Origin: a virus
Taxonomy: Duplodnaviria; Heunggongvirae; Uroviricota; Caudoviricetes
Virus record (IMG/VR): IMGVR_UViG_2623620502_000007
DNA: 35,017 nucleotides
Strand: one strand, 5' to 3'
Positions within the stretch are counted from its first letter, which is position 1, and every line of letters begins with the position of its first letter. The notes under the pieces are model-generated. The model made no database searches and was not told the DNA's origin. It saw only the letters and a list, made by a program, of their open reading frames with translations. Shown piece after piece: positions 1,507 through 34,540 of the stretch. The position numbers and the translations under genes were made by a program.

Positions 1507-1533
1507 AATCTCCCTTACACGGGCTTATTTTTT
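1507..1533. repeat. att core, left junction (27 bp, exact copy of 34514-34540)
   Basis: aatctcccttacacgggcttatttttt occurs identically at both prophage ends; it is the reverse complement of the P2 att core as I recall it. Confidence 0.85.
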
Positions 1534-1595
1534 ACGTACAACAAATTGAAATAAAAGGATTTATTTCTGGTCACGTCCACACATTGACCACATCG

Positions 1596-1621
1596 ACAAA
1601 AAAGCCCCTCGACTGAGGGGC
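1596..1621 (-). terminator. Rho-independent terminator downstream of ogr (usable on both strands)
   Basis: GC-rich hairpin gcccctc-gact-gaggggc (1604-1621) flanked by an A-run on the plus strand (T-run on the minus strand) immediately after the ogr stop; weaker T-rich tract tttctgttt also follows on the plus strand. Confidence 0.65.
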
Positions 1622-1634
1622 TTTCTGTTTGTAA

Positions 1635-1853
1635 TTACATCCACATAATTTGCTGCCCTGATGGCAACGGGTGCGGCCTTACGGCGTGGACTTCTCCCGG
1701 CTTCACGATGTATCGCTGTACCGACTCATAAGTGATGAACGTGGCACTGCAATTCACGTTCTGACACTGGTGATAACGCTCTTTTGTCGTGTCAGTGATA
1801 TAGCGGCTTGTACGCGCATGTGCGGCATGCTGGCATAAAGGACAATGAAACAT
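1635..1853 (-). CDS. ogr: Ogr, zinc-finger late-gene transcriptional activator (72 aa)
   Basis: MFHCPLCQHAAHARTSRY...CQNVNCSATF with C-x2-C...C-x4-C zinc finger; the 72-aa product from the internal Met matches P2 Ogr length. The six-frame ORF extends 21 codons upstream (to 1916) but I take the internal Met as the start. Confidence 0.88.
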   Translation of the reverse strand: MFHCPLCQHAAHARTSRYITDTTKERYHQCQNVNCSATFITYESVQRYIVKPGEVHAVRPHPLPSGQQIMWM

Positions 1854-1934
1854 CGCGAGCACCTCTTCCGGTTTTGTTGATGGTGCCATTTTAGTTAATT
1901 TATCCTTATAAAACAAATAGATAAAATAAAAACA

Positions 1935-3098
1935 TCACTCGTCATCTTCTGTTTCGTACTCCACATCAGAAAGCCTGACCTCAAGCTCCAGGGACGTCGT
2001 GAAGCCGCTATTATTCAGAAAATGTGTCACCTTAGTGATTGTCCAGTCCTGCTCGTCTATGACGCGCTTAAAGCCTGACACTTTGACCGGTGTTTCCGTG
2101 TAAATATCTGCACGACCGGTAGCCAGGCTGATGGAGAACTCCGCAACGCCCCGTTGCAGTTTATCCCACTTCGCCTGAGCGGCGCGCATGGCCTGCGCTT
2201 TCGTGGCATATACCGTGGTCAGGGCAAAAACATTGTCAGCCTCACCGGCCATGTATTCACCTTCGCGCGCTTCCGGTACTTTTGGCGCTTTCTTCTGCGT
2301 GACCGGTTTCGCTTTCGGGGGCTCCAGTGCGCGCAGGTGTTTCTCTTTCTTTTTGCGTTTCAGTTTTACCTTCTGCTTTTGTGGCTTCGGGTCTTTGGTG
2401 TGTAACCACTTTGCCGTTACGCCTGTGTAGGCTCCACGGTCAGCAATCGCAAAATGATGACGGTCGCCGTCGCTGCGGGTGATGGTAATCTGCGGGATTT
2501 TTTTACCGCTGGCCGTCACCCCCTGCCCCGCTTTGAGAAACAGCAGTTTTCCCATTTTTACCGACACCTCACCGCCGTTGCGTTCAGCAAGACGGGTCAG
2601 GAATTTCGCATCGGACTCCTGCGACTGGTCGATGTGCGGGATTTTAATTCCGGCCAGTGACGGAGCGACACTGGCTTCCAGCCTGTTACGGGAGGCAATC
2701 GCCTCAACAATCGCACCGAGCGTGGTGTCATGCCAGGAGCCTTCCCGGCGGGAATTGAGCGTGCCACGAAAATCTGCACTCCGGGCGCGGATGGTGACCA
2801 CATCCGGTGCGCCCCGGTGTTCAACCTCATCAACGGTGAATTTCCCCTTGCATACCAGGGCAAAACCTTTCCAGCCGATATACACCGTCAGGACAGCGCC
2901 ACGAACCGGCAGCCCGACCTGCCCGTCGGCATCGTTCAGTTCAATATCAAGCTGGTCAGCCTCAAAGCCCCGGTTATCCGTCAGGGTCATGCTCATCAGA
3001 CGGTCACTGATATTGCCGGTAATATCCCTGCTGTCGAGCATCAGCATGTAATCCGGCGTCAGCGTACTGCCTGCATCAAATGTCAGCGCATCCAGCAT
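1935..3098 (-). CDS. D: Tail protein gpD (387 aa)
   Basis: Position and length identical to P2 D; N-terminus MLDALTFDAGSTLTPDY; follows U in the tail operon. Confidence 0.88.
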   Translation of the reverse strand: MLDALTFDAGSTLTPDYMLMLDSRDITGNISDRLMSMTLTDNRGFEADQLDIELNDADGQVGLPVRGAVLTVYIGWKGFALVCKGKFTVDEVEHRGAPDVVTIRARSADFRGTLNSRREGSWHDTTLGAIVEAIASRNRLEASVAPSLAGIKIPHIDQSQESDAKFLTRLAERNGGEVSVKMGKLLFLKAGQGVTASGKKIPQITITRSDGDRHHFAIADRGAYTGVTAKWLHTKDPKPQKQKVKLKRKKKEKHLRALEPPKAKPVTQKKAPKVPEAREGEYMAGEADNVFALTTVYATKAQAMRAAQAKWDKLQRGVAEFSISLATGRADIYTETPVKVSGFKRVIDEQDWTITKVTHFLNNSGFTTSLELEVRLSDVEYETEDDE

Positions 3099-3577
3099 TA
3101 TCTCGCCCCCGTCATCCCCGTGAATCTGGTCGCCATACTGCCAGCCTTACCGATGAGCGATTCCGCCTGTTTACCGATATCGCCATAAAGCGCGGCCAGT
3201 GATTCATCAACGCGGGTGAGCGACAGCGTAAAATCAATTTTCCGGGGTGTGCCGTCTGCAAAGAAAATACTCCCTGTTTCACTCACCCTGCTGATGACAT
3301 ACATGCCGTAAATCATGCCGGTGCCATCCAGCAACGGCCACGCCCGGCCTTCCTCTGCCATCAGCCTGAGCGTGGTCATCGTCAGCTTCCCGCCGGTCAG
3401 TTCGGGATAAAGCACGCCGGCAAGCGTCATGTTTTCCTCACCCACACCGAGAAACTGAAAGGCATCCCGTTTACCGATACGGGAATTTGACGGCCAGCGA
3501 TAATCTGATTCGCGCTGCATGGTCTGGTGTGGCAGCGTCTGGCGCATAAAAACAAACATACCTAACGCGAGCATCAT
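3098..3577 (-). CDS. U: Tail protein gpU (159 aa)
   Basis: Synteny and length match P2 U; stop overlaps the D start. Confidence 0.85.
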   Translation of the reverse strand: MMLALGMFVFMRQTLPHQTMQRESDYRWPSNSRIGKRDAFQFLGVGEENMTLAGVLYPELTGGKLTMTTLRLMAEEGRAWPLLDGTGMIYGMYVISRVSETGSIFFADGTPRKIDFTLSLTRVDESLAALYGDIGKQAESLIGKAGSMATRFTGMTGAR

Positions 3578-3591
3578 TTTTCGTCACCTCC

Positions 3592-6039
3592 TTAACCGTC
3601 ATGCATCATGCTGGCACGGGCGCGCGCACGTTTATCCCGCTCGTATTTTTCGAGCGCATCCTGTAACTGGCGGTCGAGCTGAGTCCCCGGCGCAGTACCG
3701 CCCGTCAGACTGATGTGATATTCGTTTTTACTCTGGTCCACATAAGAGCGGCCAGCCGGTGCCGTAACCGGCTGATAAGCCTGATAGCCTGCATAAGAGC
3801 TGGTCGCCGGAATATAACCACCGGTGCCATACGTGGCGGCATGAGTTCTGGCGGCAGTCTGGTCAAGTGCGTCAGACTCTTTGTTGATAACACCGAGTTT
3901 TTCCAGTACCCAGTCAATACCACTGCGCAGTTTGTTGAACGCACTAAGCGGCAGCATCAACGCGTCAGCCAGTGCCTGCCCGAACATGACGCCCGTGTCA
4001 CGGCAACGATTCAGGGTGTCCTGGGTGGCTTTGACCGGAGCAATCAGGTTTTTAAACCACTGCCACGCGGCCTGTAACTTTTCACCCAGCCAGTCAAACA
4101 CCGGTTTAAGTGGCGTGAACAGTTCCCCCACCGGCGCAAATGCCGCTTTCAGCCCTTCCACCACACCGCCAAAGAATGCGCTGACAGGCTCCCAGTATTT
4201 ACGGATAAGCAACGCCCCGGCGACAATGGCGGCCACCACGGCCACAACCGGCCAGCTAATCGCCCCGATGGCCGTCATAACAGCACTGCCAACCGTCGTG
4301 AAGATTGCCCCCATTGCGCCTGCTGCCGCGATGATGGCATTGATGCCGGTGATAACCGGCCAGGCTACAAGACCAATGGCACCGATGATGCCAGTAAGTG
4401 CCAGCGCGCCACCGGCAATGAGGCCAATGGTTGACGCCAGTGATTTGTTTTTCTGGATCCAGCCGTCGAGTTTTAACACATACTTTGTGGCCGTCTGCGT
4501 GAGCTTACGCAGTGCGCCTTCCTGCTGGTCAAACAGGTCAGTCCCCACCGCCTCATAAGCGGACTGAAACTCCTTAAAGTCACCGCCGAGGTTGTCCTGC
4601 ATGATATTTACCAGCTCTGCGGTCTTCCCGTCTGAGGCTTTAAACGCAGCGGTCAGTTTGTCCAGCTTTCCGGTTGAGGCGGCAGTCATCAGCACAGCGG
4701 CGGCTGAGCTGGCCTCCTCCCCGAAAATGGTTTTCATGTATTCAGCCTGCTGGGCAGTACCGAGCCGGTTTTTCTCAAAACTGGCCTGCATTTCTTTCAG
4801 AATGGTAAATACTGGTCGGGTGTTTCCCTTGCTGTCTGAGGTTTTCACACCAAGCTCTTTCAGTGCATCCCATGCTTTTCCCGTCGGTGCCTGCAGGCGG
4901 CTTAACACGGCACGGCTTCCCGTCCCCGCCATTGAACCGGTAATTTTTGCGTCATGCAGCGCCCCGACCATTGCGGCGGTTTCTTCAATGCTGACACCGG
5001 CATTTTTTGCCACTGGTGCGGCATAGGTCAGCGCATCGCTCATACCGTCAAAATCGGCGGCGGTTTTGTTCATCGTCATGGAGAGAACATCCCCGATATG
5101 AGCGACCTTATCGTTTGAAAGCTGAAAGGCGGATTTCATCCCCATCAGCAGGGCGGCGTTTTCTTCCATCGTGCGGCGGTTCGCCAGCGCCATATTCAGC
5201 GTGACCGGCGTTGCCGCCTGAATGGCATCAACATCCCCACCGGCTTTCGCAATGATAATCTGCGCACCGGCAGCATCATCCGCCGAGGCGGCAGTATTGT
5301 CGCCGAGCTGGCGCGCCTGTTTGCGGAGCGCGGCCATTTCGGCGGAATCTTTTGCCACACCGAGCACAGCCTGCAATTCTGAGTTTTTCTGCGCAAACTC
5401 ATAACCGGGCATCAGCAGCTTAACTCCGGCCATCGTTCCCGCCGCCGCAATCCCCACACCGGCAGCGCCCACTGAGGCCATATTTCCGGCAAGTTCTTTT
5501 CCTGCCTGATAACGCTGTTTGACTGCGTTAAGTTTTGCCTGTTGTGCACTGACACGCGCCAGCGCGTCACGCTGCCGGTTAAGCTGTGCGGTGGTTTCAC
5601 TGATACGGTTTTTCAGCCCCTGCTCATCATGTGCAAGATTGCGGGTATTAATTCCCACAGCGGCCAGTTCCCGCTGCTGGCGTTTAACGGAATCCGTCAG
5701 GCGGTTATATTTCGCCTGTAAGTCCTCCGCCGCACGCTTTGCGGATTCCAGCACTTTCGCCTGAGCACGGGTCGGACGTTCAGTGTTTTTAAACTGTGTG
5801 GCAAGTGCTTCGGCCTCCTGCCGTGCCTTTTCAAGTGCATGACCAGTCACGGCGAGCTGTGCACTGGTCTTGCGAAACCCCTCAATACGGGATGCCTGAC
5901 CGTTCAGCTCGCGCAGTGATTTTTGTGTTTCCCGGATATCCCCCGACAGCGACTTACTCGCTGTGCGGATGGATTTAAACGGGCGGGATGCCTGGTCAAC
6001 AGCCCTGAGCAATACCTGTAATTTTACATTGTTACTCAT
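3592..6039 (-). CDS. T: Tail tape measure protein gpT (815 aa)
   Basis: Long Ala/Gly-rich coiled-coil N-terminal region and hydrophobic Gly/Ala-rich central segment typical of tape measure proteins; length equals P2 T; lies directly downstream of E/E'. Confidence 0.9.
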   Translation of the reverse strand: MSNNVKLQVLLRAVDQASRPFKSIRTASKSLSGDIRETQKSLRELNGQASRIEGFRKTSAQLAVTGHALEKARQEAEALATQFKNTERPTRAQAKVLESAKRAAEDLQAKYNRLTDSVKRQQRELAAVGINTRNLAHDEQGLKNRISETTAQLNRQRDALARVSAQQAKLNAVKQRYQAGKELAGNMASVGAAGVGIAAAGTMAGVKLLMPGYEFAQKNSELQAVLGVAKDSAEMAALRKQARQLGDNTAASADDAAGAQIIIAKAGGDVDAIQAATPVTLNMALANRRTMEENAALLMGMKSAFQLSNDKVAHIGDVLSMTMNKTAADFDGMSDALTYAAPVAKNAGVSIEETAAMVGALHDAKITGSMAGTGSRAVLSRLQAPTGKAWDALKELGVKTSDSKGNTRPVFTILKEMQASFEKNRLGTAQQAEYMKTIFGEEASSAAAVLMTAASTGKLDKLTAAFKASDGKTAELVNIMQDNLGGDFKEFQSAYEAVGTDLFDQQEGALRKLTQTATKYVLKLDGWIQKNKSLASTIGLIAGGALALTGIIGAIGLVAWPVITGINAIIAAAGAMGAIFTTVGSAVMTAIGAISWPVVAVVAAIVAGALLIRKYWEPVSAFFGGVVEGLKAAFAPVGELFTPLKPVFDWLGEKLQAAWQWFKNLIAPVKATQDTLNRCRDTGVMFGQALADALMLPLSAFNKLRSGIDWVLEKLGVINKESDALDQTAARTHAATYGTGGYIPATSSYAGYQAYQPVTAPAGRSYVDQSKNEYHISLTGGTAPGTQLDRQLQDALEKYERDKRARARASMMHDG

Positions 6040-6459
6040 TCGTGTTTCCGCTTCGCCGGAGCGCCTTTTCGCGCCATGTGATGAGTTCGGTCAGGCTCAT
6101 GGGATACAGTTCTGATGGCGGCCAGTGAAATATCACTGCCACATCCGCCATCAGGTCATCGACCGAGAGATTTTTCGGAAACGTCACTGCACCGAGTTCG
6201 GCGACAAAAAACCGACCACCTTACCGGCCAGCGCCACAAGGTCAGGCAGTTCCAGTGCGGCGACTTCCTGCTCGGTCAGCATCGGTGCCGTCATGCGCGG
6301 CAACACCTTAATCAGTGCATCGACTTCGGAGTTTGCGACCGCTGCCAGACTGACACCGCGCAGCGTCCCGGCACTGGGTTTCATCAGCGTGACCTGTTCG
6401 ATAACCTGCTCACCACGTTTGACCGGATTGTCCAGGGTAATCACATTTTCTTTGTTCAT
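6032..6459 (-). CDS. E': Tail assembly chaperone gpE+E' (142 aa) made by programmed -1 ribosomal frameshift at 6205-6211
   Basis: After a -1 slip on GGT TTT TTG the reading frame stays open for 57 further codons (VAELGAVTFPKNLSVDDLMADVAVIFHWPPSELYPMSLTELITWREKALRRSGNTNE) and stops at TAA overlapping the T start (ATGAGTAA). Total 142 aa equals P2 E+E'. Confidence 0.8.
6184..6459 (-). CDS. E: Tail assembly chaperone gpE (91 aa, zero-frame product)
   Basis: 91-aa ORF immediately upstream of T, ending ...VGFLSPNSVQ; contains the TTTTTTG slippery heptamer 7 codons before its stop. Confidence 0.85.
   Translation of the reverse strand: MNKENVITLDNPVKRGEQVIEQVTLMKPSAGTLRGVSLAAVANSEVDALIKVLPRMTAPMLTEQEVAALELPDLVALAGKVVGFLSPNSVQ
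6205..6211 (-). other. Slippery heptamer TTTTTTG (minus strand) for the E/E' -1 frameshift
   Basis: Plus strand reads c-aaaaaa at 6205-6211; on the minus strand this is TTT TTG in the E frame. Confidence 0.8.
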
Positions 6460-6515
6460 GGTTTTCTCACTTATGAATCGGGGTTAACCGGTCAGCCAGG
6501 CTGACCGGATGAAAA

Positions 6516-7034
6516 TCACAGGCCGATATTGCGGCGGTGTTGCTCCAGCCGGTCGACGCCGTTCACCTTCTCAATCATGTTGATGGTGTCGATTTCGACC
6601 AGCTCCTTACCGTCCATCGTCAGCCGGAAATAGGTGCAGACCACGGAGATTTTCGACTCGGTGTCTTCTCCCTGTTTACCCTCGCCGGTGTCGATTTCTT
6701 TCTGACGTCCACGCATGACCACCTCGACGGCCACCGTTTCGCCGGTATCGTCACGCTGGTAAGAGCCTGCAAAACGAATCGGCACAGCATCCACACCGGT
6801 TGCGGCGTAAAGCTCCCAGATAACCGAATCCGGGAAGCCCCCGAGCGACCACTCCATTGACAGCGCATCGTCATCAAGGCCGAGGTCTACCGGTGCGCTG
6901 CCGTTCATTCCCGCACCGCGATAGTTTTCGAGCTTACGGGTCAGTTTTGGCAGCGTGACGGACTTTGCAACGCCCTGATAGCTGTAGCCGTTCAGAAAGA
7001 CGTTCATTAACTTGAGTTTGCGCGGCATTGCCAT
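6516..7034 (-). CDS. FII: Tail tube protein gpFII (172 aa)
   Basis: Synteny (between FI and E) and length match P2 FII. Confidence 0.88.
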   Translation of the reverse strand: MAMPRKLKLMNVFLNGYSYQGVAKSVTLPKLTRKLENYRGAGMNGSAPVDLGLDDDALSMEWSLGGFPDSVIWELYAATGVDAVPIRFAGSYQRDDTGETVAVEVVMRGRQKEIDTGEGKQGEDTESKISVVCTYFRLTMDGKELVEIDTINMIEKVNGVDRLEQHRRNIGL

Positions 7035-7046
7035 CGGTCAGGCTCC

Positions 7047-8237
7047 TTAATTGCTGTTAACCGAGGTGACCAGATTTGCCAGGTATTTATCGGTAATACG
7101 CTGGCGCAGGGTCAGGTTTTCGAGAGGAGGCACCGGTGTATAGTCGTAGTCGATATACAGTTTTCCGGCCTTGAGGGTTTCCGCATCGTTGGATTCTTCG
7201 CTGAACCAGCAGGTCGCATCCACGATATAGCCGTTTGTTTTCAGCTCTCGGAATTTGGCATTGATGCCATCAACGATGTCGCGAATCAGCGTTGCGGTGA
7301 TGGGCTTGTCCACCGCCCACATGTGCGCCTCAGCCATCGTGTCGGCCAGCACCTGCGCGGTGCGGGTGTAGTTTTCAAAGAGGAACAGCGGGTCATCAGA
7401 GCAGGTACGGTTACCCCAGAAGCGGAAACCGTCACGGCGAATCAGCGTTGTGACGCCTGACTCATTCAGCAGGTCAGCATCGGTGCCGGACTCCTGCAAA
7501 TCCCAGAATACAGATGCGCTGATGCCGGTAACACCGTTCACCCCAACGTTGGACAGTGTTTTATGCCAGCCCTGCTCCTGGTCGATTTTAGCGCGCAGAC
7601 CCAGCGCACGGGCGGTGGCATACGCGGTGGCGGTGGTACTGGTGACCGTATCCCATGCGAGGAAATCCGGCCAGATGACCATCAGCTCACGCTGGCTGAA
7701 ATTCTGGCGGTAGGCTTTCACCTCGGAAATGGTCTTACAGCCCCATGCGCTGATATATCCGAAAGCGCGCAGCTTCTGACAGACGGATGCCAGTGCAACA
7801 GCCACCTCTTTGGTGTCCAGTCCCGGCACACCGAGAATACGCGGTTTAACACCGGTTACCGACTCTGCCGCCAGCAGGGCTTTCAGTCCGGTGTACTGAC
7901 CGTTTTCGTCGGTGGTGCCGATGATATTGGAAACGGTCTGCGCAAGTTTCGTTTCTTCGTCGTCGCCGGTGCCGTCCTCCACGCGCACAACAACGGTAAC
8001 CGGTTTTGACTGGTCGGCGATGGCCTGCAACGATGCCGCCAGCGTGCCTTTTTTACCGGCCTTTGCAATTGCGCTCTGCACATTGGTAATCAGCACCGGT
8101 TTATTGATGGGGAAGGTTTCCGCATCCGCATCGCTGGCCGTGCAGACCATGCCGACAATGGCTGTGGATACGGTGGAAATGACGCGGGTGCCGTCGTTAA
8201 TCTCCAGCACCTGCACGCCGTGATGATAGTCACTCAT
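7047..8237 (-). CDS. FI: Contractile tail sheath protein gpFI (396 aa)
   Basis: Length identical to P2 FI; N-terminus MSDYHHGVQVLEINDGTRVISTVSTAIVGMV; first gene of the FI-FII-E-T-U-D operon. Confidence 0.9.
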   Translation of the reverse strand: MSDYHHGVQVLEINDGTRVISTVSTAIVGMVCTASDADAETFPINKPVLITNVQSAIAKAGKKGTLAASLQAIADQSKPVTVVVRVEDGTGDDEETKLAQTVSNIIGTTDENGQYTGLKALLAAESVTGVKPRILGVPGLDTKEVAVALASVCQKLRAFGYISAWGCKTISEVKAYRQNFSQRELMVIWPDFLAWDTVTSTTATAYATARALGLRAKIDQEQGWHKTLSNVGVNGVTGISASVFWDLQESGTDADLLNESGVTTLIRRDGFRFWGNRTCSDDPLFLFENYTRTAQVLADTMAEAHMWAVDKPITATLIRDIVDGINAKFRELKTNGYIVDATCWFSEESNDAETLKAGKLYIDYDYTPVPPLENLTLRQRITDKYLANLVTSVNSN

Positions 8238-8330
8238 CCGTTTAACTCCGTGGTTAATGGGTGCAACTATTTTCCGTTGGGTAGTACATGAGACGCTATT
8301 TGACCTGGCTGGTCAGTGGATGAAACAACA

Positions 8331-8360
8331 GATAAAGAAAAGGCGGGCAATCTGCCCGCC
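8331..8360 (-). terminator. Rho-independent terminator on the minus strand, between the cargo gene and FI
   Basis: Hairpin ggcgggca-atc-tgcccgcc (8342-8360) followed on the minus strand by TTTTCTTTATC. Confidence 0.6.
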
Positions 8361-8592
8361 TGTCCTGATTTGTACACACTCATTTTCCGACTGACAATTT
8401 ACATAGCCAAAATGCTATCAAATCTGACAGCCTGTTTTGAGCGAAGAGGAACCTGAGATTGTGGTATGCTAATTTATGGGGAGCAGGTCAATTGTATTAG
8501 TTATCTTTTTGCCTTTCTTTATCCCATTTCTTTACAGTGGTCTGATACCACTCTTCACGTGTTCGTTATTCCTCTGCTCTGTCACTTGAATT

Positions 8593-9189
8593 TTAGTTGT
8601 CTGTTTTAATTTTTTTGCTTCCCTGGGAAATCGGCCTCCAGTCTTCTCTAATATTTTTCATCTGCTCAGCTATCTGTGTCATTGGACTCCTTGCACCTAA
8701 GTAGCTAACCCCCTCGAAAGAAGCCATATCATAAGAATACTCATTCCGCTCTCTTTCAGTTGAGCCCGGCTGTTTAGACCAGCTAATACTAACAGAATAA
8801 ACTTGATCTTTAATCTGGTCATACTTACAAAGACTGCTGTTGAGGGAATGGCCGTTTTTCAATACGCTAACCTTGCTAAATGGTATACCTTTATTTTTTC
8901 TATGTTCTGCATTAACCAGTGGGGGATTAAATCCGACTTCAATATCATAGGCTGGGGCATTTCCGGTATTAGCAATATTGATATCAAAATAAAAAGCAGC
9001 CCAAGAATTTGGTTCAAGAGTCACAACGACATGAGGTTGAACTGATGCGTCAACCATCCTTTTTGTCTCGTCTGCTAATAGCCTTGTTACTCTCCACAAG
9101 AAAAATGTAGCAACTGCTGTTAGCAATGCTGCCAAAGCGGAGATAAGTGTACTTACTGTGTTTATATGCTCTGCGATAAATTCGATCAT
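8593..9189 (-). CDS. Hypothetical membrane-anchored protein (198 aa), cargo in the FI/G slot
   Basis: AT-rich ORF with a Shine-Dalgarno-like AAGGA upstream; predicted single N-terminal transmembrane helix (VSTLISALAALLTAVATFFLW) followed by a roughly 165-aa soluble domain; no family recognised by eye. Confidence 0.6.
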   Translation of the reverse strand: MIEFIAEHINTVSTLISALAALLTAVATFFLWRVTRLLADETKRMVDASVQPHVVVTLEPNSWAAFYFDINIANTGNAPAYDIEVGFNPPLVNAEHRKNKGIPFSKVSVLKNGHSLNSSLCKYDQIKDQVYSVSISWSKQPGSTERERNEYSYDMASFEGVSYLGARSPMTQIAEQMKNIREDWRPISQGSKKIKTDN

Positions 9190-9641
9190 GAGTTGTCCTT
9201 GGGGGCGTACTAATTGTTTTCAATACTAAAATAGCGCCGGGCTTGAAAAATTGCACACTTATGGTTCGATTTACCTCAACAGTTAAGGCTTCAACTTCCC
9301 CCATGCACCTCACCCAGCCCAAGACTGTATGAGGTCTGACAAAGAACTTCCTGACACTTGAAAACGAGGCAACGGCTAGGGTTTCTCGTAGGGCAAGGAT
9401 TGAATACGAAGCCTGTATATTGCTCCGCGAACGCTGCTGAGGGCAGTTTAAATGTTGGGCGTTTATGTAGCCTTTCACTCACCAGCATGAGTTCAATGTC
9501 TGTGAGTTACCGACAACAATATAAAGGGGGTGGCATCATCATATATCCAAGCTAGAGTCAAATCCTCTAACTGGTTTTATGATCAGTGTCAATTGTTTGA
9601 TTATTGAACGTTTACGAAGCAGCACGGGAGCCATATAACTA

Positions 9642-9860: not shown

Positions 9861-9912
9861 TATATGAGCGCCTTTCTAGGCGCTTTTTTCTTTGTCCTTT
9901 GGGGGATGATTT

Positions 9913-10191: not shown

Positions 10192-10196
10192 TTAAA

Positions 10197-10220
10197 GGGG
10201 GTGGGTAGCCCCCTTTAATT
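10197..10220 (+). terminator. Weak rho-independent terminator after the 92-aa ORF
   Basis: ggggg-tgggtag-ccccc stem-loop followed by tttaatt. Confidence 0.5.
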
Positions 10221-10939: not shown

Positions 10940-10942
10940 AAA

Positions 10943-14595: not shown

Positions 14596-14599
14596 GGTT

Positions 14600-19856: not shown

Positions 19857-19859
19857 CGG

Positions 19860-26202: not shown

Positions 26203-27263
26203 AACACAACCTCCGGATGAGAAAGATCAAATGTGATAAATATACGTTTTGTAGTTGTTCTTCCGGCAGGGCCAAGTATTATCACGCATGAGCTAGGCAA
26301 TAAATTTCGTTTTTTAGCCCTAATATTATTAACATAGACATCCCCTGATATATCTGAAATATAAAACTCGGAACCAGAGTAAGTAATTTCCACACTACCC
26401 ACCCCTGGATTGTTATAAGACTCCGTCTTGTGTGTAGCTGAGAGCACTACTGGTTTTTTATTATCAGATATAAGCAATGCTCGATGAGAGTTGTGCAATA
26501 ATATTTTTTTCAAAACATCGCAAACATCTTTCATAGGGGGCCTAGCTTGAGGATTTGCATCAAGACATTTGAAAAACAATTCCTTTACAATACTTGGTAA
26601 TTTTATTACCGACAAATCAAATGGATTAGATGTCAGAATCTTAGGGTAACGGGTCAATTCATCTGGGACAGGGGTTTTAGCTAAGCACATTGCTGTAACA
26701 GCAAAGGCATATGTATCAATTGCTTTAGTAAAGTCTACGTTCTGCAAATACAACTCAGGAGCTGCAAAAATTGGGGTACCTTTAAACCCAATTGTTTTTG
26801 CATTATCTATTTTTCTTGACAAGCCAAAATCATATATTTTTACAAGCCCTTCTTTATCAATCTTCATATTCCCAGGCTTTATATCACGATGAATGATATC
26901 ATGTTCATGTATCTCGCAAATACCTGATGCTATTTGCCACAAAATCTTAATAAGCTCCCCTACTGTAGTAATTTTATTATTAACTTCATTCAACGATGGA
27001 CCATCGATAAACTCTTCAACAATTGCAAGATTGCCTTCAGCATAATTAATCACATCAAACAGTTCAACAACATGTTTTGAACGTAGTGTCATTAGAGCAG
27101 CCAACTCGTCTTTCATTCGCTCTGTATCTGATGGATCATTTATAGTCTTTATTGCAACAAATCTCTCAAGATGAGAATCGCGGCATTTGATTACACTACC
27201 AAATCCCCCTAAATCAGGATCCCCAACCACTTGATATCTTTCTGGGAGAAAATCACTCATCAT
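26199..27263 (-). CDS. Hanks-type Ser/Thr protein kinase with uncharacterised C-terminal domain (about 354 aa), second gene of the cargo operon
   Basis: Motifs LGGFGSV, VAIK, HRDIKPGN, DFG, APE; start taken at the ATG preceded by AAGGAG with 6-nt spacing (the six-frame ORF begins 2 codons upstream at 27269); overlaps the phosphatase stop. Confidence 0.85.
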   Translation of the reverse strand: MMSDFLPERYQVVGDPDLGGFGSVIKCRDSHLERFVAIKTINDPSDTERMKDELAALMTLRSKHVVELFDVINYAEGNLAIVEEFIDGPSLNEVNNKITTVGELIKILWQIASGICEIHEHDIIHRDIKPGNMKIDKEGLVKIYDFGLSRKIDNAKTIGFKGTPIFAAPELYLQNVDFTKAIDTYAFAVTAMCLAKTPVPDELTRYPKILTSNPFDLSVIKLPSIVKELFFKCLDANPQARPPMKDVCDVLKKILLHNSHRALLISDNKKPVVLSATHKTESYNNPGVGSVEITYSGSEFYISDISGDVYVNNIRAKKRNLLPSSCVIILGPAGRTTTKRIFITFDLSHPEVVL

Positions 27264-28449
27264 CACCATCTCCTTTTATTGAATTCCTTTCAAGGAATGA
27301 CATGTCAAGCTGTGAAATACAATCAAGTCTATTATTTTTATTTAACCCATTTTTTTTCTCATCTAATTCCTGAAGAGATTTATTCTTATTTTTTGTTCTT
27401 GCCTTTCTTTTTGTTGTTGCTTTGTTTATATCGCTAACGACTGAATCAGTATTTTTTTTGTTTGACACTTTTCTAACACCAGAAGTGCCTTTATTATTTT
27501 TTTCAAGCTCAACTGTATTTAAAGGCTCTAATGAAGATGACTTATTCGGCACGCTAATGACTTTTAATTCACCAAATGGATCCCAGAGATTTATTACATC
27601 TCCAGATGAAACATCTAACTCTTTTAGAGTATTAAAAAGGTCTATAACTGCTATACTTGCATTGTCGAAACCACCAAACCAACTAGCAAGATCAATAACC
27701 CGCCTAGAATAAACACCTAGATTCGCCGAGTGCACATATAACTTTCTTAAATTATCCTTACCGATAGAATGCGCACCATCAGAACTTAAAATAATTACGC
27801 CACTCTCCAAGGCTTGGATATGATGAAAGTGTATTTCCAATGTGCCATCTATGCCTATAAATTGTACTAATTCACCACCAAAGCGTAAATCAATATCCTG
27901 TGGATCCATATTTAGATGATTATTATACTTTTTGGCTAAGGCAACTAAAGTATCGTCCTCGCTCAACTGAGTAGTTTCTTCATGCGAGACATAATAAATA
28001 CGGCTATCACCTACATTTACTGCGGTAATATTATCATCATCTTCTAAAGCTATCGCTGATAATGTCGCCCCTCCATTACCCTTATATACATTCAAAACAG
28101 AATCATTCGCTTGTAGCACAGCTTTCTCAAGACAAGAACGTATTGGTAAATGAGAATTTCTTATTATTTCAGTAAAAAATGTAGATAAAGTTAAAGATGC
28201 TGCATTGGCACCCCCCTCCATCCCCCCCATACCATCGGCTAACGCAACAACAACGATATCTTTAGCTTTGCTACTTGGGCGGAATTTCAATATAGCAACC
28301 CTATCTTGGTTTTCCTTCCGTACCAACCCAATGTCAGTAGCTATAGCCACTGGTAAGGTTGAGACACGACGCACTGAGGATGCTATATTTTTTCGATGTA
28401 GCCATCCGTGAATATGCTCATGAAGGATTTCGTAAGAATCACGGCTCAC
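27253..28449 (-). CDS. PP2C (PPM) family Ser/Thr phosphatase with Lys/Asn-rich C-terminal tail (398 aa), first gene of the cargo operon
   Basis: PP2C signature motifs ENQDR, ALADGMGG, VGDSR, SSDGAH, DNAS; GTG start 4 nt after AGGAGG (an in-frame ATG one base upstream runs straight into TGA); AT-rich. Confidence 0.82.
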   Translation of the reverse strand: MSRDSYEILHEHIHGWLHRKNIASSVRRVSTLPVAIATDIGLVRKENQDRVAILKFRPSSKAKDIVVVALADGMGGMEGGANAASLTLSTFFTEIIRNSHLPIRSCLEKAVLQANDSVLNVYKGNGGATLSAIALEDDDNITAVNVGDSRIYYVSHEETTQLSEDDTLVALAKKYNNHLNMDPQDIDLRFGGELVQFIGIDGTLEIHFHHIQALESGVIILSSDGAHSIGKDNLRKLYVHSANLGVYSRRVIDLASWFGGFDNASIAVIDLFNTLKELDVSSGDVINLWDPFGELKVISVPNKSSSLEPLNTVELEKNNKGTSGVRKVSNKKNTDSVVSDINKATTKRKARTKNKNKSLQELDEKKNGLNKNNRLDCISQLDMSFLERNSIKGDGDDE

Positions 28450-28579
28450 ATTACCTCCTAGTTACTTTGATAGACCAAAGAGTTAGCTTACAAAAATAGA
28501 GCGGAAATGCCTAGTGTTTCAATCGATTTTTGTGAGAATTGGTTATTTAATAACTATATAAAAACATTGGAATTTACCA

Positions 28580-30862
28580 CTAATTCCAGTTAGCAAAAAG
28601 CCCCCATTCCTCTTGCGAGCGCTCATTAAAACTATAATATTTTCCTTCGTAAAAGAGTGTAGCTCCGCGAGCTAGAGCAAGAAGCAGCCACCTTTCCACC
28701 GCAACCCCCTGCTGAGCAAGGTCTACGCGGATACGGGTAATTTGCATTCGTTCTGACCGGGTCAGTCTGGCCGATGGTGCAATTTCATGCGGTTTTAACG
28801 GGCTTCCATTTCTTTGCTGACGGTTTGGCGTTCTCAGGTCGTGTTTTAATGCGCCCCTGAGCGCCCTCACGACCTCCGGTTCATTCCATTCAATAACACC
28901 GTCATCAACCAGATTAAGCACTGCTGCGGCGTGCTCAGAAGGAGTGGGAGCCGGTAACGAAGTATCACCGCTGGTGAGCTTTCCACAGTTATTGACAGGA
29001 CTCCGAGGCGCGGCGATGCCGCTTTTTAAAGTCAAAGGCTCAACGACCGGCACTTTCGGCACAATGCGCCAGTCCGTCGTTCTGGTGATATGAATATGAC
29101 GCGCGCCGAGATGCGGCGCGTAAATGCCGACCACTCTCTCGACTTCTTCCTCGTACTCGTTAACGTCATCCGACGGGCTACGGGCAACCCTGACAGTCTG
29201 ACAATCGCGCGGAACATTTGCCCCACCCTGCGCGCTGATATACAACGCAAAATCACCACTGTCTGCGGCGGCGCGTGCAGCCTCGACGCGTTCGTCAAAC
29301 TCATCAGCAATGCTGACGCCACGAGGCAATTTGCGTAGTTCACGGTAAGCCCCCATTGTCGGCAGACCAACCGTTTTAAATTGCGGGATGCGCCACGTTG
29401 ACGCCCATGCGGTAACAGCCGCGGCAGTATCTTTAAGCGGCCTGCCGGTATCGTTATCGAGCTGACCATCCAGTGCATAGCCGTCGATATTTTTTGAGAT
29501 GTATTTAGCGATATACCCCGCAGCACCACCCCGGTTAAGGTGTTTTGCCTGAAAACGGTTTCGCGCGGCTCCTCTTTCGTCGCCATCCTCTTTGAGCGCA
29601 TAGCGACGCATGATTTCGATAATCTGGTTACGCTGGCGTGGATTACAAAAAAGCATCATATGCCAGTGCGGCGTTCCGTCGTGGTGTGGCTCGACGACAC
29701 GCAAACCGTAGACCTGTAAATCATTATCCTTGAATGCCGTGCGCATCAGGCTCCAGATACGGCAGAGATAACGCTGCGCATCCTTTGGATTAAATGCCTC
29801 ATCATTCCAGCCGTGATTAAGCTGGACGGTTTTACTTTCGCCTTTTCCGACCTGACGTGTCGGGTGATACTTTGACGGCGTGGTCAGCGTGATAAACATC
29901 CCCACATCACCCTCTGCGGCGGCGTAACGCTCAATACCGGCAATGGTGTTCATCAGCTCCATCCGGCGAATTTCAGGATTAGAAATACTGCCCATCACCT
30001 TACTGATAAGGTCGATGCGCTCGCCGGTTTCCCTGTTTTCAAGGTCACACGATTTAAGAAATTCCAGATTTGCCTGGCGGCGTGCACGCACATCACGAAT
30101 GGCATGTTTACTGGCATAAGGAGAACGGTCTTTATTGACTTCCCCGACAGCTATCAGTAACGCCTCATGCCAGCGCATACGCTGGCCTTTAAGCTGATGA
30201 GTCCACCACTCATCGTTAAACAGACGGGCAATGGCAGAATATGCCTGCCTCGTGGTCATCTGCCCTTTACGGTATTTTTTCCAGTAGAGAGGGGAAATAT
30301 TGAAAGCACGTGCAGCGCCAGCAACATGACCATAGAGGTGAGCCTGCGCCTCATCCGTAAACAGCGATTCTTTTTCGCCATGCGCATCCACCCAGGCATC
30401 GCTGAGTTCCTCATACATCATGAAAAGCTGCGATGAGATACGGGCAGCAAACTTTTTCAGCTCCTTGTCATTCATTCCCGGCAGGCGCGCATAGTGGTCA
30501 CGCTCTGCCAGAAACAGTAACGACGCGTCGGTGTTCATTTCATGGCGCTGATTCACACGCTCAATGCGCGGCCATAAACGACGCTGAAAAGTGGATGTGA
30601 GGAAATAAAACCCGTGCACCGGGCTTTTATTGCGCCGGATGTAGTCATAGCGTGAAGTAAACAGCGAGCGCAAAAAGTAAGGCAGGCGGTTAATCGTGGA
30701 TAAAACACCTTGCACCTGACGCATCTCGTCACGTGTAAGGGGTCTTTCGCGCCCGACGGCCTCGCGTGGCGCGTTCCATGCATAAGCACCGGTAAACGTC
30801 TTACCGGTGCCTGCGGCAAATGCTGACGGAGGGACAAAACGCCCGGAGGCTTTAACGGCCAT
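28580..30862 (-). CDS. A: Replication initiator gpA (rolling-circle nickase, about 760 aa)
   Basis: Start taken at MAVKASGRFVPPSAF; large protein with conserved HxH (PHWHMML) and Tyr motifs; the six-frame ORF extends 14 codons upstream to 30904, so the start is uncertain. Confidence 0.85.
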   Translation of the reverse strand: MAVKASGRFVPPSAFAAGTGKTFTGAYAWNAPREAVGRERPLTRDEMRQVQGVLSTINRLPYFLRSLFTSRYDYIRRNKSPVHGFYFLTSTFQRRLWPRIERVNQRHEMNTDASLLFLAERDHYARLPGMNDKELKKFAARISSQLFMMYEELSDAWVDAHGEKESLFTDEAQAHLYGHVAGAARAFNISPLYWKKYRKGQMTTRQAYSAIARLFNDEWWTHQLKGQRMRWHEALLIAVGEVNKDRSPYASKHAIRDVRARRQANLEFLKSCDLENRETGERIDLISKVMGSISNPEIRRMELMNTIAGIERYAAAEGDVGMFITLTTPSKYHPTRQVGKGESKTVQLNHGWNDEAFNPKDAQRYLCRIWSLMRTAFKDNDLQVYGLRVVEPHHDGTPHWHMMLFCNPRQRNQIIEIMRRYALKEDGDERGAARNRFQAKHLNRGGAAGYIAKYISKNIDGYALDGQLDNDTGRPLKDTAAAVTAWASTWRIPQFKTVGLPTMGAYRELRKLPRGVSIADEFDERVEAARAAADSGDFALYISAQGGANVPRDCQTVRVARSPSDDVNEYEEEVERVVGIYAPHLGARHIHITRTTDWRIVPKVPVVEPLTLKSGIAAPRSPVNNCGKLTSGDTSLPAPTPSEHAAAVLNLVDDGVIEWNEPEVVRALRGALKHDLRTPNRQQRNGSPLKPHEIAPSARLTRSERMQITRIRVDLAQQGVAVERWLLLALARGATLFYEGKYYSFNERSQEEWGLFANWN

Positions 30863-31127
30863 ATGAGCCAAAAACCTCTGAACAACGCTTGCTGAGTTGC
30901 TCAACCTGCGCGTTTAAATCAGCAAAAGACTTTGCGCTTCCGGTCAGAATATCGTGATGCATCAGGCCGGAAACGAGCTGGCTTAATTTCGGGTAATAAC
31001 CAACCACCGACAGCCATTCCTGACCGGCGTTTTTACCGCTTTCCGCTCTCTTTTTCTCGTGGAGAATAAACTGAAAGCTGTCACTGGTAACGACATAACG
31101 TTCGCCAATTTCAATACGAATACTCAT
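30852..31127 (-). CDS. Hypothetical early-region protein (91 aa)
   Basis: Sits between the TraR-like gene and A in the early operon, the position of the small orf80-83 genes of P2; overlaps neighbours at both ends. Confidence 0.6.
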   Translation of the reverse strand: MSIRIEIGERYVVTSDSFQFILHEKKRAESGKNAGQEWLSVVGYYPKLSQLVSGLMHHDILTGSAKSFADLNAQVEQLSKRCSEVFGSYGR

Positions 31128-31348
31128 GCCGTTCTCCGGTAATGTTTGTTTTTTGCTTCAAAGACTGACTGACAGGAAACACAACGCGTGGCTGACGGAT
31201 AAGCCGCACGACGGGCAGCAGGTATTGGCGCATCACACTCTTCGCAAACCAGCGAAGAAACTCCGCAATGTTTTACCCTTGCCGCGTTAATCTGGCGCTC
31301 CAGTAATTCAGCCTGTTGTTCCTGAATAAAATCTACGTTGTCCGGCAT
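31124..31348 (-). CDS. TraR/DksA-family C4 zinc-finger protein (74 aa)
   Basis: C-x2-C...C-x2-C (CEECDAPIP...CVSCQ) with a flanking acidic/coiled region, typical of phage TraR/DksA-like proteins. Confidence 0.7.
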   Translation of the reverse strand: MPDNVDFIQEQQAELLERQINAARVKHCGVSSLVCEECDAPIPAARRAAYPSATRCVSCQSVFEAKNKHYRRTA

Positions 31349-31653
31349 TACCAGCTCCTTTTATCGTTCAGTTTCTTGAATTCATCAGCGCAATAGCTGG
31401 CGATTTCTGTCGTTAATTTTGTCAGCTCATCCACGGATGAAATTTGCTTGTGGAATACAGCGCGTTTAACAAGTAAATTGACCACATCAGACAGGAGGTT
31501 TAATTCATTCTGATAAATCGCGATAACAGATTCAGTTATGTCGCGTTTTTCTTTATCAAGACAAAGTTGAATAAGAGACAAATCGCCATTTTTCATAACG
31601 GCGATTTTTAAGGCGTTATTCAGTAATACAACTGAATGAGAACAGGACATCAA
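31348..31653 (-). CDS. Hypothetical early-region protein (101 aa), AT-rich
   Basis: ORF with stop/start overlaps to its neighbours; composition noticeably more AT-rich than the flanking early genes. Confidence 0.55.
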
Positions 31654-31874
31654 AGCACCTTCCCGCGAGACAATCCGATATTGTGAAATTTTTCCGACTC
31701 CTCACTGAGCAGCTCGACTATCTCCACGCGGGATAACTCCGCCTTTGTGATGTGGCGAATCATGGCGTCAAGATGAGAAGAAAAGCGCGTCGCAGCGTCG
31801 GCCTGTGCTTCGGTTCTGGCCTGTTGCAGCAGTAATGCGTATATACCGCACTGATTTTCAGAAACTGTATGCAT
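31650..31874 (-). CDS. Hypothetical early-region protein (74 aa)
   Basis: Small ORF directly downstream of B in the early operon. Confidence 0.55.
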
Positions 31875-31937
31875 GACTTTCTCCAGGCAAAAAGAAGCCC
31901 CGCACGATTAAGTGCGTTAAAAACTCTGGTTAATTAT

Positions 31938-32438
31938 TTAATGCAGATATTGCTCTGGTTTTACCGACGTCAGAATTGTCGGTGCATACTCAAACAGGCT
32001 GAATAATTCACGTAATGCACGGAACAAAGCATCACGCCAGTAACATGATTCTTCATTAATTCGCCAGTATGGCTGGTTGAATTCTTTTTCAGTCAGTCGT
32101 GCGTGCATAAATAAAGTGCGACGCTGACTGACTGTTAAAAAACTAATATATGCATACTCACTTGCACCAACCTGACGGCGTTTTGAGAATGCGCCACGCA
32201 ATTCATCAATTGCACAAACCAGTCGTTCACGTTCGACGTCGTTCATTTCTTCAAAACGCATCGTTGCGTGACGCTGTTTTAACTGTGCATGAAAGCAAAC
32301 CGTTAGCCGTTCGCGCTCCATCATCTGATTATAATAATCACATGTATCCTGCCAGCGAGGGACGGCAAGATGCTTGCCAATTATCCGGCGCATAGCTGCT
32401 GGCTGTTTTTCAACGAGATTGAGCGTCATCACTGTCAT
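31938..32438 (-). CDS. B: Replication protein gpB (166 aa)
   Basis: Start taken at MTVMTLNLVEKQPAAMRR to give 166 aa; the six-frame ORF begins 2 codons upstream; the ATG overlaps the upstream small ORF stop (ATGA). Confidence 0.82.
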   Translation of the reverse strand: MTVMTLNLVEKQPAAMRRIIGKHLAVPRWQDTCDYYNQMMERERLTVCFHAQLKQRHATMRFEEMNDVERERLVCAIDELRGAFSKRRQVGASEYAYISFLTVSQRRTLFMHARLTEKEFNQPYWRINEESCYWRDALFRALRELFSLFEYAPTILTSVKPEQYLH

Positions 32439-32605
32439 TTCCATACCCTCCGGCTTTTCAGAAAGGTCAGAGCCTTTTTTAACGGACTCTGTTTTTTGGT
32501 GCGGATAATGATTCCCTTACGCCCCTTACCGTGGGTGATGGTGAAGTCAATCGCCCTGGGGCTTTCGTTACGCAGTAACTGAGCAATACAACGAGGCTCA
32601 TTCAT
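32435..32605 (-). CDS. Small basic hypothetical protein (56 aa) between cox and B
   Basis: ATG at 32605 preceded by AAGGAGA with 5-nt spacing; Lys/Arg-rich; the six-frame ORF start at 32629 would overlap cox. Confidence 0.55.
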   Translation of the reverse strand: MNEPRCIAQLLRNESPRAIDFTITHGKGRKGIIIRTKKQSPLKKALTFLKSRRVWK

Positions 32606-32615
32606 ACGGTTCTCC

Positions 32616-32891
32616 TTAACGTGGTTCACCGAGACCTAACCACATCAACCAGCCGTCACGAATCTCTTTAGGGCGGCTTTCATAAGCCAGTTTTAGTCCG
32701 TTATTCCATGCCGGAAGGTATACCCAATATTCACCTGCACGACCTGAAGCTGATTGTGGATCGGTCATATCAATTACAGGCAGCTTTCCTTTATCAATCA
32801 TCCGACGAACCGCTCCTGTCGATTTTCCTATTAGTTTTGCGAACTCCTGATAAGGAATCGCATCAGTCATGAGTGTTACTTGCTTGCTCAT
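32616..32891 (-). CDS. cox: Cox, excisionase and repressor of the lysogenic promoter (91 aa)
   Basis: MSKQVTLMTDAIPYQEFAKLIGKSTGAVRRMIDKGKLPVI...; 91 aa as in P2 Cox; divergent from C. Confidence 0.88.
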   Translation of the reverse strand: MSKQVTLMTDAIPYQEFAKLIGKSTGAVRRMIDKGKLPVIDMTDPQSASGRAGEYWVYLPAWNNGLKLAYESRPKEIRDGWLMWLGLGEPR

Positions 32892-33005
32892 GTCGTCCTC
32901 TAGCCCTCATGAATTGCGTTTAATGTCTTATAATGCCTTTTAGTGCCCACATCCAAGCACTAAACAATCTACATCTAAACTAAATACTATTGAGATCTAA
33001 ACACC
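32892..33005. promoter_or_regulatory. Pe/Pc divergent promoter-operator region (lysis-lysogeny switch)
   Basis: 114-bp AT-rich gap between divergent cox and C, the position of the P2 switch; operator repeats not resolved by eye. Confidence 0.55.
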
Positions 33006-33305
33006 ATGTCAAACACGATAAGCGAGAAGATAGTCTTAATGCGAAAATCAGAGTATTTGAGCAGACAACAACTTGCTGATTTAACAGGGGTTCCGTATGG
33101 CACGCTGAGTTACTATGAAAGTGGTCGTTCAACACCTCCAACAGATGTCATGATGAACATCCTGCAGACCCCACAATTCACCAAATACACTTTATGGTTC
33201 ATGACCAATCAGATCGCTCCTGAGTCCGGGCAAATTGCGCCCGCTCTCGCACACTTTGGGCAAAACGAAACAACGTCGCCCCACTCCGGTCAAAAGACTG
33301 GTTAA
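33006..33305 (+). CDS. C: Immunity repressor C (99 aa)
   Basis: 99 aa as in P2 C; helix-turn-helix segment LSRQQLADLTGVPYGTLSYYESGRSTP. Confidence 0.88.
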   Translation: MSNTISEKIVLMRKSEYLSRQQLADLTGVPYGTLSYYESGRSTPPTDVMMNILQTPQFTKYTLWFMTNQIAPESGQIAPALAHFGQNETTSPHSGQKTG

Positions 33306-33420
33306 CAATTCATCGTGAATATATTCATCACAAGTGCCTACTATTGGTGGCTAAATTTCAGCCACCACGAAAAAAGCGATTAGTAGTCGCAAAAAAACAC
33401 ACCACTCGGAGGGTTTTCTG

Positions 33421-34434
33421 ATGGCAATCAAAAAACTCGATGATGGTCGATATGAAGTGGACATCCGCCCTACTGGACGTAATGGAAAACGCATCCGTAG
33501 GAAGTTTGATAAGAAAAGCGAAGCTGTCGCTTTCGAGAAATACACGTTGTACAACCACCACAATAAAGAATGGCTATCAAAACCAACAGACAAGCGACGT
33601 CTGTCGGAGCTGACACAGATCTGGTGGGATTTAAAGGGTAAACACGAAGAGCATGGGAAATCTAATCTTGGAAAAATTGAAATCTTCACAAAAATAACGA
33701 ATGACCCATGCGCATTTCAAATTACGAAATCGCTTATCAGCCAGTACTGCGCCACCCGAAGAAGTCAGGGTATTAAACCTTCGAGTATCAATCGTGATTT
33801 AACATGTATTAGCGGCATGTTTACAGCCCTGATTGAAGCGGAGTTATTCTTTGGTGAGCACCCTATCAGAGGGACAAAAAGGCTTAAGGAGGAAAAACCA
33901 GACACAGGCTATCTCACGCAGGAAGAAATTGCCTTACTGCTTGCTGCTCTTGACGGCGACAACAAAAAGATTGCGATTCTTTGCCTGAGTACTGGAGCAC
34001 GTTGGGGAGAAGCAGCTCGTTTGAAAGCAGAAAATATCATCCATAACCGCGTCACGTTTGTTAAAACGAAAACAAACAAACCACGCACCGTCCCGATCTC
34101 AGAGGCTGTTGCCAAAATGATCGCGGATAACAAACGAGGTTTTTTATTCCCTGATGCTGATTACCCTCGCTTCAGACGAACAATGAAAGCAATAAAACCG
34201 GATTTGCCAATGGGGCAAGCCACACATGCACTAAGGCACAGCTTTGCCACTCATTTCATGATTAATGGAGGAAGTATTATCACGCTACAACGGATACTAG
34301 GTCACACGCGGATTGAGCAAACTATGGTTTACGCTCATTTTGCGCCAGAGTACCTTCAGGACGCCATTTCTCTTAATCCGCTAAGAGGTGGTACTGAAGC
34401 CGAGAGTGTCCACATAGTGTCCACAGTAGAGTAA
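33421..34434 (+). CDS. int: Tyrosine integrase (337 aa)
   Basis: Length equals P2 Int; C-terminal catalytic motifs HALRHSFATHF and LGHTRIEQTMVYAH; GGAGGG RBS; att core 80 nt downstream. Confidence 0.92.
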   Translation: MAIKKLDDGRYEVDIRPTGRNGKRIRRKFDKKSEAVAFEKYTLYNHHNKEWLSKPTDKRRLSELTQIWWDLKGKHEEHGKSNLGKIEIFTKITNDPCAFQITKSLISQYCATRRSQGIKPSSINRDLTCISGMFTALIEAELFFGEHPIRGTKRLKEEKPDTGYLTQEEIALLLAALDGDNKKIAILCLSTGARWGEAARLKAENIIHNRVTFVKTKTNKPRTVPISEAVAKMIADNKRGFLFPDADYPRFRRTMKAIKPDLPMGQATHALRHSFATHFMINGGSIITLQRILGHTRIEQTMVYAHFAPEYLQDAISLNPLRGGTEAESVHIVSTVE

Positions 34435-34513
34435 CGTTTAAGGGCTTTCAGTGGTAATTTATGCCGCTCAAACCCGCATTGTACCGTTGAAAGCCCCTAC
34501 TGGTGACACCCTA

Positions 34514-34540
34514 AATCTCCCTTACACGGGCTTATTTTTT
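34514..34540. repeat. att core, right junction (27 bp, exact copy of 1507-1533)
   Basis: Identical 27-mer; the right copy is followed by one extra T. Confidence 0.85.

Follow-up and report, generated by a model that had tools for sequence, protein, structure and literature searches.

Phage P2 and its relatives are the closest described systems for the locus studied here. Absence of induction by ultraviolet (UV) light is part of the classical definition of the P2-like phages, and a P2 lysogen spontaneously releases about 4.5e-4 phage per bacterium (PMC1904263). The cox-defective P2 prophages produce no phage spontaneously (PMC3936717). The small RNA gene cyaR has been tabulated as a P2 site, occupied by Wphi2 in strain W, by ogr-D' in K-12 and by P2*B in strain B (PMC3032704). 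Regarding cargo, more than 1,200 clusters of the KKP type have been described, mostly in temperate phages including P2, and in P2 prophages they lie between gpA and the portal gene (PMC11341870). In the KKP of Guo et al. 2024, a phosphatase gene is followed by a gene for a kinase with FHA and then by one for a kinase with CSD (PMC11341870). The two kinases form a joint toxin, which the phosphatase neutralises (PMC11341870). Protection against T4 and T-odd phages was shown for KKP systems from E. coli, Salmonella, Shewanella and Vibrio, and the inhibition of the phosphatase by Gp59 of T4 is the trigger (PMC11341870). The present study deals with the IMG/VR virus record IMGVR_UViG_2623620502_000007, a stretch of DNA of 35,017 nucleotides that is hereafter called the window. 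The overall result indicates, with a probability of roughly 85%, that the window holds a structurally complete Peduovirus prophage with P2 immunity, inserted by Int and IHF at the 3' end of cyaR, carrying a KKP operon and a Z/fun-slot cargo, and released spontaneously at a low rate. All of its parts are of kinds already known, namely phage P2, the cyaR site, the P2 accessory hotspots (PMC9122126, PMC13586616) and KKP.

Results

A repeat search of the window returned one exact direct repeat. It is the 27-nt sequence AATCTCCCTTACACGGGCTTATTTTTT, with copies at 1507-1533 (left att core, the cyaR/ogr-side junction) and at 34514-34540 (right att core, the int/yegR-side junction). The sequence alignment showed that it is identical to the annotated P2 attP core (27/27). 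The element is 33,007 bp long when one core is counted, against 33,593 bp for P2, and this length is inside the 29.5-34.8 kb span of packaged P2-like genomes. Both the P and the P' arms are within the element and the core is doubled at its ends, as is characteristic of P2-type integration. The megablast search of 50,697 phage records gave Peduovirus genomes, among them fiAA91-ss, R18C, P2 and Wphi, with 95-98% identity over most of the element.

The 42 proteins of P2 (NC_001895) were searched against the window by tblastn. Full-length matches were obtained for 37 of them, with 93-100% amino acid identity excluding H, which is a mosaic, and G (74%). All of the 37 conserved genes have an ATG start at the P2-equivalent position and a single terminal stop. 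The sequence-only reading, an earlier model-made note on this DNA, had described a complete P2-like prophage with exact 27-bp att repeats, int, cox, C, ogr and cos, and the present analysis confirmed this description. It had also stated that the gene lengths are identical to those of P2. This is exact for 35 of the 37 genes, whereas H has 736 residues versus 669 in P2 and A has 760 versus 761. The product of the -1 frameshift, E+E', is open over 142 residues and its slip region is identical to that of P2 (31/31). For orf30, fun(Z), orf91, tin and old, tblastn gave no full-length match in the window. These P2 genes without a counterpart are accessory and all non-essential in P2. The window and P2 share 20.7 kb of coding sequence, over which the nonsynonymous (dN) and synonymous (dS) substitution rates are 0.0062 and 0.091 and dN/dS is 0.068. 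To judge from the sequence, this value is a signature of purifying selection and not of a decaying remnant. The element has a collinear and complete gene set for head, packaging, lysis, tail, replication, regulation and integration, as found in Peduovirus.

The cis-acting sites are also conserved against P2. The 19-nt cohesive-end sequence of cos (24994..25012) is identical to P2 cosL/cosR (19/19), and cos lies between Q and the accessory slot. About 55 nt around cos, together with the TGCAT repeats, are conserved. The tQ terminator (22/22) and the ori nick region at 28984-29024 (41/41) are identical to those of P2. The face-to-face Pe/Pc switch with the C operators O1 and O2 is located at 32909..33012, where Pe/O1/O2 matches at 40/40 and Pc at 26/26 positions. 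For recombination, there are an IHF site (1532-1565, 33/34), the arm-type Int sites of the P arm (1569-1596, 28/28), which hold a direct pair of the arm motif, the Int sites of the P' arm (34400-34426, 26/27) and the Cox boxes (34424-34497, 74/74). The Ogr activator-binding site that is shared by the divergent promoters pO and pP (21926..21956) is likewise identical (31/31).

The published consensus of the P2-type Int arm sites is tgTGGaCa (PMC3448106). A third P-arm-like stretch, GATTTCTTTCTGACGTCCACGCATGACCACCTCGAC, was observed inside the tail tube gene FII at 6692-6728 (P2 19167-19182), and it matches the P arm at 33/36 positions with two gaps. The window has exactly three direct pairs of the Int arm motif G[TA]CCAC with a spacing of 10-11 nt, one each in the P arm, FII and the P' arm, and all on one strand. 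The same three pairs are present in P2, and shuffled sequences give 0.14 pairs.

The flanks of the prophage are yegQ, now named trhP, on the left (1-1362) and yegR on the right (34700-35017). The sequence-only reading had placed the attachment site between these two genes. The interval is right, but the exact position is the 3' end of the small RNA gene cyaR (ryeE; 1445..1530, plus strand). This gene matches Rfam RF00112 with 100.7 bits (gathering score 47) over model positions 1-85 of 85, and the cyaR region of the window is identical to that of K-12. The 27-bp core comprises three parts of the cyaR terminator, namely loop, 3' stem arm and U-tract. On integration the core is duplicated and the terminator half is rebuilt. 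Therefore, cyaR stays whole. A transfer RNA (tRNA) scan found no tRNA gene in the window, and the attachment site is therefore not a tRNA. The alignments with MG1655 located attB at the cyaR 3' end in the yegQ/trhP-yegR interval, with the same junction as that of the ogrK/yegZ remnant in K-12, which the earlier note had correctly named. This remnant, PR-X, starts at exactly the same core and runs through ogrK into a D fragment (yegZ). Its right end is the partial core TACACGGGCTTATTTTTT, 18 nt of the core, followed by the same right flank.

For the usage of the site, a reconstructed empty junction of 160 nt was compared with 5,426 complete E. coli genomes. The empty site is uninterrupted in 4,203 of them, while the occupied junction of int, P' arm, core and yegR was found in 812 (15%). 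Therefore, the cyaR site is used very often. This comparison with empty sites in related genomes was one of the checks that the sequence-only reading had proposed, and its view of a recurrently used P2 site is supported.

The host flank just right of the right core (34554-34602) resembles the P arm of P2. Its alignment to 1561-1610 has a local score of 22, which none of 2,000 shuffles reached (mean 7.5, standard deviation 1.3). The stretch holds a 15-nt exact run, CATTGACCACATCGA, and then a partial core, AATCTCCCTT, at 34591-34600. It is also present in K-12 and lies inside the empty-site query matched in the 4,203 genomes. Because of this P-arm-like stretch and the partial core, an older P2-like integration may have left the 'empty' site behind as its scar.

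The cargo had not been identified in the earlier note. It comprises a KKP cassette and a trio of genes in the Z locus. The KKP operon (25141..28449, minus strand) has a GC content of 35-40% versus about 56% in the backbone. It takes the position of P2 old/tin between cos and gene A and replaces orf91 too, and it is transcribed with gene A, opposite to P2 old/tin. At first, there is a PP2C phosphatase gene (27253-28449, minus strand; 398 residues), whose product matches PF13672 (PP2C_2) with 27 bits against a cutoff of 24. Second, there is a Ser/Thr kinase gene (26199-27263/27269, minus strand; 354/356 residues), whose product has a C-terminus of predicted FHA fold. Third, there is another Ser/Thr kinase gene (25141-26202, minus strand; 353 residues) encoding a CSD-like C-terminus. 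The Pfam matches of the two kinases to Pkinase (PF00069) have E-values of 9e-47 and 1e-40, with 160 and 137 bits. The neighbouring genes overlap by 17 nt at 27253-27269 and by 4 nt at 26199-26202. A phosphatase gene of the PP2C family followed by two Pkinase genes in one operon is the arrangement that defines KKP. As read from the translations, both kinases retain the VAxK, HRDxKPxN and DFG motifs, and the phosphatase retains the metal-site motifs DGMGG, GDSR, SDG and DN. An AT-rich gap of 130 bp (28450..28579, minus strand) separates A from the phosphatase gene, and within it are an AGGAGG ribosome-binding site and a site resembling a promoter. The consensus scan showed TTGAAA-18-TATTTT at 28522->28493, followed by the GTG start of the phosphatase. 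This site is the putative KKP promoter.

By sequence, no FHA match was obtained for the tail of the middle kinase, neither in Pfam at E<=10 nor when the PDB was searched with phmmer and profiles. The AlphaFold2 model of residues 256-354, for which 24 homologues were used, reaches a pLDDT value (predicted local distance difference test) of 90 and shows an FHA fold. Its top Foldseek matches in the PDB are almost all FHA domains, such as those of Rv0020c and Rad53 FHA1, with template modelling (TM) scores of 0.55-0.62 and a best E-value of 7e-3. The model thus gives fold-level support for a predicted FHA domain on the middle kinase.

This KKP allele was found in 4 of the 5,426 complete E. coli genomes, and others hold a variant of about 74% identity. 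The same three KKP proteins, with identical RefSeq WP accessions, are encoded in E. coli AF200 (NZ_OZ547450.1; 12344-15652 of the locus). The carrier there is a different P2-like prophage beside pflA, with another int and a Cox of 123 residues. An IS21-family element interrupts this prophage, and tail genes have been lost from it. The presence of the same KKP proteins in this other backbone indicates that the cassette has been exchanged between P2 backbones. Term searches gave no mention of KKP, phosphatase or DUF3606 in Rousset et al. 2022 (PMC9122126) or in the 2026 Nucleic Acids Research paper on P2/P4 hotspots (PMC13586616).

The second cargo (8238..10411) stands in place of P2 fun(Z) and is 99.1% identical to R18C and 98.7% identical to the P2-EC53 Z-region (AJ512682). 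It contains open reading frame 1 (ORF1; 8593-9189, minus strand), which is truncated and matches the phrog_11802 profile over 1-198 of its 230 positions. It also contains a gene for a DUF3606 protein (9642/9681-9860, plus strand; Pfam E-value 9e-18) and a gene for a 92-residue protein matching the PHROGs profile phrog_1090 (9913-10191, plus strand). In the Z-region record of P2-EC53, ORF1 is labelled as a putative lysogenic conversion protein. This record also has annotated inverted repeats, which the repeat search did not recover; it gave just a terminator hairpin and a 16-nt pair at 81%.

The remaining genes are as follows. The late-gene activator gene ogr is at 1635..1853 (minus strand; 72 residues, 100% identical to P2 Ogr, with a terminator matching at 24/24 positions). 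The F operon with the tail genes D, U, T, E, E+E', FII and FI covers 1935..8237 (minus strand; full length, 98.5-100% amino acid identity). The genes of G, for tail fibre assembly (175 residues), and of the tail fibre H are at 10412..13153 on the minus strand. H holds an in-frame tandem repeat at 12168-12613, for which Tandem Repeats Finder gave a unit of 132 nt (44 residues), 3.4 copies and 88% matches. The protein is collinear with H of fiAA91-ss plus one extra 44-residue unit, and it reaches 736 residues because of this additional 132-nt unit. At 13164..21846 (minus strand) there are the baseplate genes I, J, W and V, the tail completion genes S and R, the lysis genes lysC, lysB, lysA, K and Y, and X, L, M, N and O, all of P2 length with 93-100% amino acid identity. 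The S-V interval lacks orf30, as in fiAA91-ss. The terminase large subunit P (590 residues, 99.8%) and the portal Q (344 residues, 98.5%) are encoded at 22020..24826 on the plus strand. The replication initiator gene A (28580..30862, minus strand) encodes a protein 95% identical to P2 A. The early operon of orf83, orf82, orf81, orf80, B, orf78 and cox (30852..32891, minus strand) has P2 lengths and identities of 93-100%, with Cox at 100%. The genes of the immunity repressor C (33006-33305; 99 residues, 100%) and of the integrase, int (33421-34434; 337 residues, 99.4%), are on the plus strand. An open reading frame of 71 codons at 34497-34712 was considered as a gene and rejected, since it straddles attR and the bacterial flank. 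In the same span of strain VG12A2, the PGAP annotation has just a partial pseudogene fragment of about 120 nt.

Discussion

The conserved sites and genes suggest a mode of action like that of P2. P2-type Int with IHF would recombine the 27-bp attP core with the identical sequence at the cyaR 3' end and thereby insert the prophage. In the lysogen, C would repress Pe. An occasional flip of the C/Cox switch would lead to excision dependent on Cox and Int. After excision, A would drive replication as a rolling circle, the late genes would be switched on by Ogr, and the DNA would be packaged from cos to cos. The two accessory slots bear swapped-in cargo, KKP at the P2 old/tin position and the three-gene set in the Z/fun slot. 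Since C, Cox and the Pe/Pc operators are 100% those of P2, the prophage should share the immunity and the switch behaviour of this phage. Low-rate spontaneous release is therefore expected by analogy, and not SOS induction. The sequence-only reading had called the element probably inducible, which does not agree with this identity or with the lack of UV induction in P2-like phages (PMC1904263). Virion production would follow the same P2 pattern. By analogy with the described systems, the KKP operon is expected to act as an abortive-infection system against lytic phages, with a kinase toxin and a phosphatase antitoxin.

Several observations weigh against an intact and releasable prophage with KKP cargo. 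At first, codon 199 of ORF1 in the Z locus is changed from TAT to TAA, which leaves 198 residues versus 230 in R18C and P2-EC53. Therefore, some mutation has accumulated. There are four more substitutions within about 90 bp of the stop, and the ORF1 reading frame of VG12A2 is equally short (597 nt). Second, the activator sites of pF and pV deviate from those of P2; the best matches are 25/29 and 20/28, at other positions. Third, the CSD of the second kinase is weak. The isolated C-terminus matched PF00313 with an E-value of 0.007 and 16.6 bits against a cutoff of 27, and it is also S1-like at an E-value of 0.007, with a YGFI motif present. Fourth, tblastn against the 50,697 phage records found no virion-derived phage with this KKP, and the best match of the phosphatase had 35% identity. 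Therefore, the combination of this backbone and this cargo is unseen as a packaged phage. In addition, the prophage could carry a lethal missense or regulatory change.

These points can be explained by a grounded or cryptic prophage, which looks intact but in which missense or regulatory changes block excision or plaque formation, and which is kept for KKP and P2 immunity. The nonsense mutation in ORF1 would then show an element that is accumulating mutations, and the pF and pV promoter regions unlike P2 and the lack of a packaged phage with this cargo on record would fit. The identical KKP cassette in the clearly degraded AF200 prophage points in the same direction. However, all of the 37 conserved genes are open, dN/dS is low, and the sites for recombination, packaging, replication and the switch are essentially identical to those of P2. 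The divergent promoter regions are not specific to this prophage, either. Although the S-V junction and the regions of pF and pV depart from P2, they are collinear with fiAA91-ss, a sequenced phage. A grounded prophage is thus unlikely, and a structurally complete prophage with low spontaneous release is preferred. The earlier statement that nothing suggests decay is right for the conserved genes and too strong for the whole element, for the ORF1 stop is the one sign of decay, in a non-essential gene.

In Pseudomonas, the KKP of Pf6 sets the production rate of the prophage by phosphorylating an H-NS-like silencer, besides its function in host defence. By analogy, the targets of KKP phosphorylation in the window might be a host nucleoid protein, or else C, Cox or Int, and a non-inducible P2-type prophage might in this way become conditionally inducible, but we regard this idea as quite doubtful.

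The naming of the cassette was also considered. PADLOC matched both kinases with generic kinase profiles alone (PD-T4-6 and mad6, E-values down to 1e-59), and no PADLOC model matched the phosphatase or the Z-locus proteins. Therefore, PADLOC cannot name the system. A view in which each kinase would be a defence kinase of the PD-T4-6 type that acts as a single gene, beside an unrelated phosphatase and without an integrated KKP module, would agree with these best-named matches but is very improbable, because the three genes form one operon in which they overlap or abut, their order (phosphatase, kinase with FHA, kinase with CSD-like tail) and gpA-portal position fit the KKP definition, and the same three proteins travel together in the AF200 prophage.

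The prophage of the window adds one further case of occupation to a P2 site that is very common, and it is of little importance beyond annotation. The modular swapping of defence cargo in the P2 accessory slots is as expected. For the host strain, cyaR survives the integration. Immunity to P2 and the ability to help P4-type satellites are to be expected of this strain, and by analogy with the described KKP systems it probably resists T4-like and some T-odd phages.

The comparison with P2 (NC_001895) shows a common gene order and identical C, Cox, Ogr, att core, cos, operators and ori nick region. The nucleotide identity is 96.4-98.1% within the aligned part of each query half (58-86%). In contrast to P2, the window is without orf30, fun(Z), orf91, tin and old and has KKP and another Z-locus set instead. 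H is a mosaic, G has 74% identity and the pF/pV regions are different.

The closest relative is already in RefSeq. The VG12A2 prophage (NZ_CP128592.1) occupies the same cyaR/yegR site and is 99.6-99.65% identical over the shared prophage stretch, with a KKP region 100% identical and about 100 substitutions overall. Among the complete E. coli genomes there was no 100% match of the whole element, VG12A2 at 99.6% being the best. VG12A2 has an IS1 in yegR beside the prophage (30077-30774 of the locus; about 34870 in the window), whereas yegR of the window is intact. Therefore, the window comes from a different, closely related strain. Phage fiAA91-ss (NC_022750; source urban raw wastewater) shares the H/G type, the S-V junction without orf30 and the pF region. 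However, it has the cdt-V toxin genes and an IS21 where the window has KKP, and its int and C are different. R18C (NC_049461) shares the whole Z-locus cargo at 99.1%, but its ORF1 has the full length of 230 residues. The K-12 PR-X remnant is 97% identical to the window from the left junction through ogr and shares the right flank. It retains 629 bp, with ogrK, the D fragment and the right end with 18 core nucleotides, whereas the element of the window is complete.

Finally, the KKP operon can be compared with PfkA/PfkB/PfpC of Pf6 and with the KKP of E. coli 15EC039 (PMC11341870). The gene order and the gpA-portal position are as in the window. The variant in the window differs in that FHA and CSD are both under the Pfam thresholds. 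Its kinase tails are likened to those of KKP by architecture, with a predicted FHA fold on one kinase and a CSD-like tail with a GFI motif on the other.

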